Assembly (NCBI GenBank): GCA_022425445.1
Contig: JAKMFM010000168.1
Location: forward strand, 4,930-68,929
DNA from: Planktomarina sp.
Lineage (GTDB): Bacteria > Pseudomonadota > Alphaproteobacteria > Rhodobacterales > Rhodobacteraceae
Reading direction: 5' to 3'
Length of the DNA stretch: 64,000 nt
The notes beneath the pieces were generated by a model that saw nothing but the letters and a program-made list of their open reading frames with translations, ran no database searches and was not told the origin of the DNA. Shown here piece after piece: positions 32,344 through 35,262 of this stretch (its first letter is position 1; the number at the start of each line of letters is the position of its first letter). Made by a program: the position numbers and the translations under genes.

Positions 32344-34290
32344 TTACAGCAAATCCGGTGGTGTGGATTCGGTTTTGAGCGCCGCCACAAGTTGATCAAG
32401 TGCCACAACTTCACTATTTTTGCTGCCCAAGCGGCGCATTGATAGGGTCCGGTCCGCAACCTCTTTCATCCCCACCGCGAGGATCACAGGTACTTTAGCG
32501 ACGGAATGTTCACGCACTTTGTAATTGATTTTTTCGTTGCGGGTGTCCGCTTCGGCCCGGACGCCCACGGCGCGCAAAGCCGCAACGGCCTCATGCACAA
32601 ATTCATCGGCGTCCGATACGATGGAAGCCACCACCACCTGCCGCGGTGCCAGCCAAAGGGGCAAGCGCCCGGCATGTTCTTCGATCAATATCCCGATGAA
32701 ACGCTCAAAAGACCCCAGGCAGGCGCGATGCAGCATGACCGGCCGGTGCTTATTGCCATCTTCGCCGATATAGCTTGCATCTAAGCGCTCGGGCAGAACG
32801 AAATCCACCTGATGGGTGCCGCATTGCCAATCACGGCCAATGGCATCGGTTAAAACAAACTCCAATTTCGGACCGTAGAATGCACCTTCTCCGGGGTTCA
32901 TTTCCGGTTCGATACCTGCCTTGCGGGTTGCGGCCAGAAGGGCGGTTTCCGCCCGATCCCAGACCTCATCAGAGCCGGAGCGCTTTTCTGGCCGATCACT
33001 GAATTTCACGCGGAAGGATTCAAAGCCAAGATCTTTATATACAGAGGTTAGATAGGCGATATAGAGAGCGGTTTCCTCTTCGATTTGGTCCTCACGGCAG
33101 AAAATATGCCCGTCATCTTGCGTAAAGCCGCGCACCCGCATGATGCCATGAAGTGCCCCTGACGGCTCGTAGCGTGCGCAGCTGCCAAATTCAGCCATGC
33201 GCAGCGGCAGATCTCGGTAAGATTTTAGGCCTTGGTTGAAAATCTGCACATGACAGGGGCAGTTCATCGGCTTGAGCGCATTAACGGCCTTTTCGCGAGC
33301 ATGCTCTTCATCCACTTCGACGATGAACATATTCTCTTGATACTTGTCCCAATGGCCTGAGGCCACCCAAAGCTTGCGGTCCACCACCTGCGGGGTGTTG
33401 ACCTCAACATAGCCGCCTGCACGTTGTTTGCGGCGCATATAATCTTGGAGTTCGGTGTAGATGGTCCAGCCGTTTGGATGCCAAAAGACCTGTCCGGGTG
33501 CCTCTTCTTGCATATGGTACAAATCCATTTCGCGGCCCAGCTTGCGGTGGTCGCGTTTGGCGGCTTCTTCGAGCATATGCAGGTGAGCTTTGAGCTTTTC
33601 TTTGTTGGAAAATGCAACCCCATAGATCCGTTGCAACATCGCCCTATCGCTGTCGCCGCGCCAATAGGCGCCGGCCACACTCATCAATTTGAACCCATCT
33701 GCGGGCACTTGCCCTGTGTGTTGCAAATGTGGTCCACGGCACAGATCTTGCCAGTCACCGTGCCAATACATTCGCAGAGGTTCGTCACCAGGGATGGCGT
33801 CAATCAGCTCCACCTTATAGGGCTCTCTGGCGTCGGTATAATGTTGCACCGCGCGCGCGCGATCCCAAACTTCGGTGCGGACTGCATCGCGCTTATTGAT
33901 GATTTCCTTCATCTTTTTCTCAATCACGCCCAAGTCTTCTGGGGTGAAAGCCTCTTTGCGATCAAAGTCATAATACCAGCCGTCTTTGATCACCGGACCG
34001 ATCGTCACCTGCACATCAGGCCAAATTTCCTGAACCGCACGGGCCATGATATGGGCTAAATCATGCCGGATCAGCTCATTGGCTTGGACCTCATCTTTCA
34101 TGGTATGAATCGCGATCGTGGCGTCGGTCTCAATGGGCCAAACCAGATCAAAATGGGCACCATTCACCGTTGCGGAAATGGCTTTCTTCGCCAAAGAACT
34201 GGCGATATCAGCAGCCACTTCGGCGGCGGTGATGCCGGCCTCATAATGGCGGATAGAATTGTCGGGAAGGGTGAGTGAGATTTGGGCCAT
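32344..34290 (-). CDS. thrS: Threonine--tRNA ligase
   Basis: TGS N-domain, [42 protein letters not shown]; GAGGAG RBS. Confidence 0.96.
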
Positions 34291-34312
34291 CACGGGCACT
34301 CCTCGTCAGTTT

Positions 34313-34329
34313 GGCGCCCACGGAACGCC
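34313..34329 (-). promoter_or_regulatory. Putative tRNA-Thr anticodon-mimic operator hairpin in the thrS leader
   Basis: Minus strand GGCGUUC-CGU-GGGCGCC with CGU at -32..-30, just upstream of the SD. Confidence 0.6.
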
Positions 34330-34512
34330 CGGTTGCGGGTATTTGGTTCGGCTGCTGTTTGGCGGTTTTGAATTTGGCTGTCAACCACCCAAACACTGGG
34401 GCGCGTTGCGGCCAATATGACACAGGCCCAGCCGTTGGCACCGCAGGGGCGCGAAATTCCATTGTCAGGACCCATTGTGCAGATAAAATCTGGCTCAAAC
34501 TTGGGGGTGCGC

Positions 34513-35262
34513 ATGAAATTTTTGACAACGGATTCAGGTCGAAGAATTGCTTATGCGCAGAGCAAAGGCACGGGGCCCGGCGTGGTGTTTTTGGGCGGGT
34601 TTATGTCCGATATGACAGGCACCAAAGCGCTGCATTTGGAGTCCTGGTGCAAGGCGGAAGGCCGCGGGTTTTTGCGATTTGACTATTCAGGGCACGGCGC
34701 GTCTTCGGAGGCCTTCACAGATGGGTGCATTGGCGATTGGGCGGAAGATGCGCAGTCGGCAATTTGTGAACTGACCGAAGGGGCACAAATTTTGGTTGGC
34801 TCATCTATGGGCGGATGGATTTCCCTTCTAATGACGAAACGGATTCCAGAGCGAATTGCAGGGCTCGTGACCATCGCCGCGGCTCCGGATTTTACGGAGG
34901 ATGGGTTTTGGGCAAATTTCAACGCTGACACTCGCAAATTTTTGACGCAAGAGGGGCTGGTTAATATTCCTTCGGGTTATGGCGATCCCTATCCGATCAC
35001 CAAGCGCCTGATTGAGGATGGTCGGTCACATCTTGTTCTGCGCAGCCCGTTGAATTTGCCCTTTCCGACGCGATTTTTGCAAGGTGATGAGGATGAAGAG
35101 GTGTCGGTTGAACTGGCGCAACGTCTTTTTGCGCTTGCGACCGGCGACGACATTCAACTGCGCTTGCTCAAAGGCGGGGATCACCGATTTTCATCTCCCA
35201 GGGCTTTGGCCTTGACCCAAGAGGCAATAACGGATGTGATTGGGGCTACTAAGGCAGAATGA
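34513..35262 (+). CDS. Alpha/beta hydrolase (ABHD10-like)
   Basis: GGFMSDMTGTKA, RFDYSGHG, nucleophile GSSMGG, AAAPDF, GDHRFS. Confidence 0.85.
   Translation: MKFLTTDSGRRIAYAQSKGTGPGVVFLGGFMSDMTGTKALHLESWCKAEGRGFLRFDYSGHGASSEAFTDGCIGDWAEDAQSAICELTEGAQILVGSSMGGWISLLMTKRIPERIAGLVTIAAAPDFTEDGFWANFNADTRKFLTQEGLVNIPSGYGDPYPITKRLIEDGRSHLVLRSPLNLPFPTRFLQGDEDEEVSVELAQRLFALATGDDIQLRLLKGGDHRFSSPRALALTQEAITDVIGATKAE

Follow-up and report, generated by a model that had tools for sequence, protein, structure and literature searches.

Results

The thrS locus of a Planktomarina genome

The window analysed here is a stretch of 64,000 nucleotides from Planktomarina sp. (contig JAKMFM010000168.1). On its minus strand lies thrS (32344-34290), encoding a threonyl-tRNA synthetase (ThrRS) of 648 amino acids and of the E. 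coli type with N-terminal domains. The open reading frame matches 1qf6_A over its full length (E 1e-209), and 325 of 635 aligned residues are identical between the window enzyme and E. coli ThrRS. The gene starts at the ATG at 34290, which aligns with the start codons of relatives; a GTG at 34299 was rejected as the start for its overlap with the Shine-Dalgarno sequence (SD). Four anticodon-contact residues of the E. coli enzyme, N575, R583, E600 and R609, are conserved in the window ThrRS, and two loop-contact residues are changed, D549 to S and R589 to K. E600 and R609 are counted among the anticodon-binding residues of ThrRS. Anticodon-binding roles for N575, D549, R583 and R589 are described in a study of bacterial ThrRS (PMC4756836). 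Two tRNA-Thr were detected in the window genome, with anticodon loops UU-UGU-AA and UU-GGU-AA. Across the same intergenic region from thrS is a divergent alpha/beta-hydrolase-like gene (34513-35262, plus strand) with its own sigma-70-like promoter (34462-34489).

A conserved 42-nt element carries an anticodon-arm-like hairpin before the thrS start

The thrS leader contains a conserved element of about 42 nt (34340-34299, minus strand) whose 3′ end is the thrS SD. The element begins with a 5′ flank, ACCCG-CAACCG (34340-34330), with columns 91-100% conserved among the 172 carriers that have the common loop length. There follows a hairpin resembling an anticodon arm (34329-34313): a 5-bp stem, GGCGU/GCGCC, formed by 34329-34325 with 34317-34313, and a 7-nt loop, UCCGUGG (34324-34318). 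Within the loop, CGU (34322-34320) takes the place of tRNA positions 34-36 and mimics a threonine anticodon. The 3′ flank, AAAC-YGA-C (34312-34305), joins the hairpin to the SD and is conserved at 89-99% except in its Y column (C in 112 and U in 55 of the 172 carriers). The SD, GAGGAG (34304-34299, columns 88-98% conserved), is located 8 nt 5′ of the ATG.

The original prediction had read the minus strand here as GGCGTTC-CGT-GGGCGCC (34329-34313), with GAGGAG downstream and TTGACA (34384-34379) upstream. This reading is exact, and CGU indeed occupies -32 to -30 when counted from the ATG at 34290. The hairpin it proposed also stands; it was drawn as a 7-bp stem with a triloop, and a 5-bp stem with a 7-nt loop is preferred here because the two inner pairs of the longer stem are optional. 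Pair 33-37 is impossible in 18 and pair 32-38 in 7 of the 176 carriers. A tendency to pair is seen between positions 33 and 37 (C-G 95, U-A 53, U-G 10, unpaired 18; n = 176), although the supported branches of the ThrRS tree offer only three independent pairs for judging their covariation. The triloop form may describe the free RNA, though it is not required. A leader peptide was considered and discarded, since 68 of 176 carriers have GUA in place of the GUG that overlaps the loop.

The element probably lies inside the thrS transcript

Upstream of the element, the -35 box TTGACA (34384-34379) is followed after 17 nt by a predicted -10 box, CAAACA (34361-34356), that has no T at -7. Counting 7 nt from the -10 end, transcription is predicted to start at 34349 and to give a leader of 59 nt. 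TTGAC is found at most 75 nt upstream in 174 of the 176 carriers. In 171 of them it stands 34-47 nt 5′ of the element, and the predicted leaders are 44-64 nt long. A C-A-rich hexamer recurs 17 nt downstream of TTGAC across carriers, its -10 columns being C in 84% and A in 95%. A consensus promoter scan misses CAAACA because it demands T; T at -7 is described as missing from most alphaproteobacterial sigma-70 promoters (PMC8407463). A supplementary table of that paper lists a start site for R. sphaeroides thrS (RSP_0385) at 2116944 with the -10 sequence 'cagaag', and the coding sequence starts at 2117001 in a supplementary table of another (PMC7866481). From these coordinates alone, the leader is therefore 57 nt. 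Promoter geometry together with this published start site leads us to infer that the element lies within the thrS transcript, and the leader of about 60 nt originally expected from TTGACA agrees with the lengths of about 55-60 nt predicted here. Among metatranscriptome contigs from eight runs, one (X2) ends at 34349 and another (X10) at 34384; those of the other runs end inside thrS or are fragmented, and the contig ends give no more than a weak hint of the start site.

The element is conserved 5′ of thrS across Rhodobacteraceae

Searches with the ThrRS N-terminus gathered thrS leaders from 203 Rhodobacteraceae loci, 185 of them distinct. These loci are part of the matches, comprising the best-scoring ones, 30 weak-scoring ones picked for divergence and 40 from the middle of the list, and the sample over-represents Planktomarina and Sulfitobacter. 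A first screen that required GU in the loop (195 hits) was circular and made three false calls (L163, L167 and L198). It was replaced by loop-blind anchoring, which uses the stem arms and flanks and ignores the loop letters. By this procedure the element is present 5′ of thrS in 176 of the 185 distinct loci, all 176 with G35 and U36, so that the hairpin and its GU loop are conserved in relatives as had been anticipated. The nine loci without it are L149, L152, L154, L159, L163, L165, L166, L167 and L169. Eight of them group in a single divergent branch, which also contains carriers, of a ThrRS tree that is poorly resolved. L154 and L166 have other leader hairpins that display CGU, in a loop of 12 nt in L154 and in a short loop in L166; these are possibly replacement structures.

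Conservation within the element is mostly 88-100% per column and drops to 28-65% upstream of it. A generic Thr-anticodon-like hairpin occurs 58 times on both strands of the 4.2 million nt of the window genome, or about 0.0008 times per 60-nt window. The hairpin is above chance because it is conserved 5′ of thrS against this rare genomic background.

A covariance model (R1) built from 67 distinct rows found the element in 137 of 149 Rhodobacteraceae genomes, one genus each; this figure serves as a census rather than as independent testing, as many of the genomes contributed rows to the model. Four of the 12 genomes without a match have a cut or unassembled thrS. Five family genomes gave no match to the ThrRS N-terminus, three with thrS cut at a contig end and two in which it was not found, and these are assembly gaps. 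Outside Rhodobacteraceae, the model matched 0 of 119 genomes drawn from other alphaproteobacterial families, a draw that probably counts one unpublished genome (G260). Each genome yielded one match except G000 and G086, which yielded two and have two thrS copies, and the matches compared by eye adjoin thrS. The two copies in G000 (contigs C121 and C128) are 93% identical at the N-terminus and have the same element before both; the second probably belongs to a second strain mixed into the bin, whose contamination is 4.8%.

The loop varies at position 34 and is frozen at 35, 36 and 38

Of all parts of the element, the loop varies most. It has 7 nt in most carriers and 8 nt in 4 of 176, and mostly reads YY-NGU-RG. 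Among the 176 carriers, position 32 is U in 130, C in 39, G in 6 and A in 1; position 33 is always a pyrimidine (C113/U63); position 34 takes all four bases (C139/A19/U14/G4); and position 37 is a purine in 173 (G105/A68/U3). The frozen loop positions are exactly 35, 36 and 38, which are G, U and G in every carrier. Mapped on the ThrRS tree, which rests on 96 columns and is poorly resolved, position 34 changed 28 times by a rough count and position 35 never. The (C/U/G)GU loop foreseen in the original prediction thus holds for its invariant GU and fails for its first base, which is A in 19 carriers. The variants UU-UGU-AG and UU-GGU-AG are one base off the tRNA-Thr loops of the window genome.

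A free position 34 beside frozen positions 35 and 36 is the pattern to be expected of a site read by ThrRS. Bacterial ThrRS is described as making specific contacts with positions 35 and 36 and as also reading 34, 37 and 38 (PMC4756836); the reading of position 34 by the E. coli enzyme in that description is harder to square with a 34 that is fully free. The invariance of GU is also less striking in an element with many frozen positions.

The stem is paired in 334 of 335 cells of the 67 distinct rows, a value reached by none of 500 shuffles, and RNAalifold predicts the hairpin. Pairing is thus maintained across relatives, with two double changes (L146 and L162); covariation is thin because stem and flanks are nearly invariant. 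One-sided changes retain a standard pair, often G-U, which indicates RNA of the minus strand. The closing pair is U-G in 159 of the 176 carriers and C-G otherwise.

Folding and possible pairing of the flanks

On its own, the 22-nt hairpin adopts the drawn structure (-9.6 kcal/mol), no better than chance (z -1.24). In window leader contexts of 63, 80 and 124 nt it is absent from the minimum-energy fold, and single-sequence folding gives no support there (z 0.04, -0.35 and 1.26). The calculated probability of the hairpin in the window leader is 0.09, at a cost of 1.5 kcal/mol relative to the favoured ensemble; the probability exceeds 0.5 in 53% of the 176 leaders. The window sequence alone is insufficient to establish the hairpin. 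In Planktomarina the 3′ arm of the hairpin has an alternative pairing partner in GUGCCC, the spacer that follows the SD, and this competing fold encloses the SD (34319-34291, minus strand); the spacer is unconserved across Rhodobacteraceae.

Two alternative pairings are available to the CCCG of the 5′ flank, a local hairpin (CCCG-CAAC-CGGG) and a basal helix with CG(A)GG at the SD. The local hairpin is paired in 90% of cells, with no double change. The basal helix shows a double change in four of four pairs in a MAFFT alignment. It is not predicted by RNAalifold, and when tails were swapped among 23 divergent members in an energy test, 1094 of 10000 shuffles were as good, which is not significant. 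The SD is often predicted to be paired across carriers. Tentatively, the conserved flanks may add to the hairpin to give a longer, irregular stem, and the base of this stem would cover the first half of the SD.

Comparison with known thrS leaders and with tRNA-Thr

PDB entry 1KOG, one of the ThrRS entries listed, is the complex with the E. coli thrS operator, which has domains 1-4. The operator was reportedly extended to a subset of Gram-negative bacteria by Torres-Larios in 2002. The E. coli operator and the Planktomarina element precede the same gene, directly 5′ of the SD. Domain 2 of the E. coli operator (our locus L210) has the loop UU-CGU-GU, with U-G closing; the loops of both have 7 nt, with CGU at positions 3-5, and the anticodon C is at -33 in E. 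coli and -32 in Planktomarina. An E. coli-type ThrRS with the N-terminal domains required for repression is also common to both (PMC7373986). In published accounts of the E. coli system, ThrRS excludes the 30S subunit and tRNA-Thr competes for it, repression needs the N-terminal region of ThrRS, and a changed anticodon brings the message under MetRS control (PMC11088916, PMC9976931, PMC7373986, PMC3858243). Some E. coli genomes have a second, non-canonical thrS (L139:558-2516) beside M14 peptidase and dihydroorotase genes; this locus was left out of the operator comparison.

There are also differences. E. coli has two anticodon-mimic hairpins, the second of which (domain 4) lies further upstream and serves the other ThrRS subunit, whereas the Rhodobacteraceae element has one, in a leader of about 57-60 nt. 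A second 5-bp/7-nt hairpin with a GU loop was found within 130 nt upstream in only 3 of the 176 carriers, and within the first 150 coding nucleotides in another count of 3 of 176; the screen covered 7-nt loops, and the loop of E. coli domain 4 has 8 nt. The predicted leaders, at no more than 64 nt, leave no room for an E. coli-like second hairpin. The single-domain layout that had been proposed is thereby supported. Position 38 is U in the E. coli operator and an invariant G here; the U-rich upstream domain 3, which in E. coli makes up a bipartite single-stranded ribosome-binding site with the SD, has no counterpart in the Rhodobacteraceae leader, which instead has a short A/C-rich 5′ flank; and highly conserved A/C-rich flanks with a possible SD-covering basal helix are peculiar to the Rhodobacteraceae element. 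Stem and flanks are unrelated in sequence, and model R1 gave no match in L210 at E<=1. The hosts belong to different classes, Alphaproteobacteria here and Gammaproteobacteria for the E. coli operator. As far as the sequences tell, the element resembles E. coli domain 2 in geometry and is not a member by homology.

With the tRNA-Thr anticodon stem-loop the element shares the 5-bp stem, the 7-nt loop, the pyrimidine at 33, G35, U36 and the purine at 37. It differs in having G38 where the two tRNAs found have A38, C33 in 113 of 176 carriers and AGU in 19, and it has no acceptor arm or cloverleaf. AGU is not known as a usual anticodon of bacterial tRNA-Thr. The thrS T-box of Firmicutes likewise acts in cis from the leader RNA and ties thrS expression to the status of tRNA-Thr. 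A T-box displays a codon, the specifier in Stem I, binds tRNA and has a long leader with an antiterminator; the Rhodobacteraceae element displays an anticodon in a leader of about 59 nt. Signs of a T-box were absent at the thrS leader, with no Rfam match and no terminator-like site on the minus strand before thrS. Rfam gave no relevant match to the element, but the E. coli operator goes unmatched there too, so that the missing match has little bearing on novelty. A superficial resemblance to the SAM-SAH riboswitch found no support in Rfam.

Related hairpins in other alphaproteobacterial lineages

In other alphaproteobacterial families, 6 of 84 leaders (88 fetched) have a hairpin with a GU loop, which is background level. 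Around one of these loci, L229 in family f116, such a hairpin was found in 12 of 30 loci from three genera on a different stem, CCCGY/RCGGG, with one double change. The loop, (U/A)U-(G/A)GU-NG, lies at -29 to -33 before thrS, and G35, U36 and G38 are again invariant. Model R1 gave no match to the f116 hairpin, and the 5′ flank resembles the Rhodobacteraceae flank in one genus; the two hairpins may reflect distant homology or convergence. The f116 loci comprise L229 (thrS start at 1501) and L249-L259, and in L259 another loop of this kind lies about 70 nt upstream of the first. In another family, a single genome (G262, locus L334) has a long hairpin with the loop GU-GGU-AG before thrS, about 46 nt from where the sequence read ends.

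Discussion

Judged by its conservation, the element is a real, family-wide RNA element and appears to be a single-hairpin variant of anticodon-mimic thrS control. Probably it acts as a single-hairpin translational operator through which ThrRS represses its own synthesis by anticodon-arm mimicry. By this scheme, ThrRS in excess of tRNA-Thr would bind the anticodon-mimic loop of its own mRNA through the C-terminal anticodon-binding domain. The bound enzyme would exclude the 30S subunit at the SD, 8 nt from the hairpin, and block thrS translation. tRNA-Thr would compete for ThrRS and relieve the block, which would match ThrRS to the tRNA supply. Binding, the sign of the effect and stoichiometry are inferred here by analogy with E. 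coli. Several observations count against the operator. Mimicry of the arm leaves the conserved flanks and G38 without explanation, the hairpin is not the favoured fold in the window leader, covariation is thin, residues D549 and R589 are altered, and E. coli needs two hairpins where one is present here.

The very high conservation of unpaired-looking flanks by the SD would be accounted for if the 42 nt were a ligand-sensing riboswitch or the site of another factor, such as a protein that binds or modifies tRNA, and its likeness to an anticodon were incidental. The alternative pairings of the 5′ CCCG are typical of compact riboswitches as well. But the element occurs only before thrS among the matches compared, no Rfam family matches it, its free and frozen loop positions track threonine identity, and its loop is seen again before thrS in the f116 lineage, where the stem is unrelated, and in E. 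coli, so that we regard this reading as improbable. About equally small is the chance that ThrRS binds the element and, instead of excluding the ribosome, alters mRNA stability or activates translation. The sign of the effect is unreadable from sequence, and the single hairpin, the lack of a U-rich upstream domain and an SD that is 8 nt off the stem and possibly paired would all fit such an outcome; the anticodon, however, stands at -29 to -34 in 180 of the 195 first-screen hits, near its place in E. coli as steric exclusion requires, and the known logic is described as negative feedback (PMC7373986).

Least probable by some way, and hardly to be expected, is that the inverted repeat serves a transcription factor as a DNA operator just 3′ of the promoter. 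The element lies about 10-50 nt past the predicted start site, and its minority form GGCGC-N7-GCGCC is a DNA palindrome; yet the closing pair is U-G in 159 of 176 carriers and other G-U changes occur, which are non-palindromic in DNA, and the element stands anywhere from 34 to 47 nt from the -35 box but at an almost constant distance from the SD.

The preferred ThrRS operator also allows a more specific and more doubtful version, to which we would give perhaps one chance in a few: a minimal two-state switch with a single hairpin that evolved apart from the E. coli operator. In one state the 5′ CCCG would fold onto the Gs of the stem and leave the SD free; in the other, ThrRS would clamp the arm, CCCG would pair with CG(A)GG and the SD would be hidden. 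The frozen A/C-rich internal loop would then stand in for the second hairpin of E. coli. If this is true, the G38 loop on unrelated stems in a second alphaproteobacterial lineage would point to a repeated origin of anticodon mimicry as a means of ThrRS autorepression.

The literature searched, mainly titles and abstracts, contained no such element for Rhodobacteraceae or Alphaproteobacteria and no account of thrS control in Rhodobacteraceae. For bacterial synthetases, autorepression through anticodon mimicry is a mechanism established in E. coli. Rhodobacteraceae are both abundant and genetically tractable, and they have no T-box here. A 42-nt element with a single hairpin, present in most genera, offers a small testable system for asking whether dimeric ThrRS can repress through one hairpin, and it raises the question of what would substitute for the second hairpin of E. 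coli. For annotation, the element adds a new RNA family, and it suggests wider use of such control than the E. coli literature shows.
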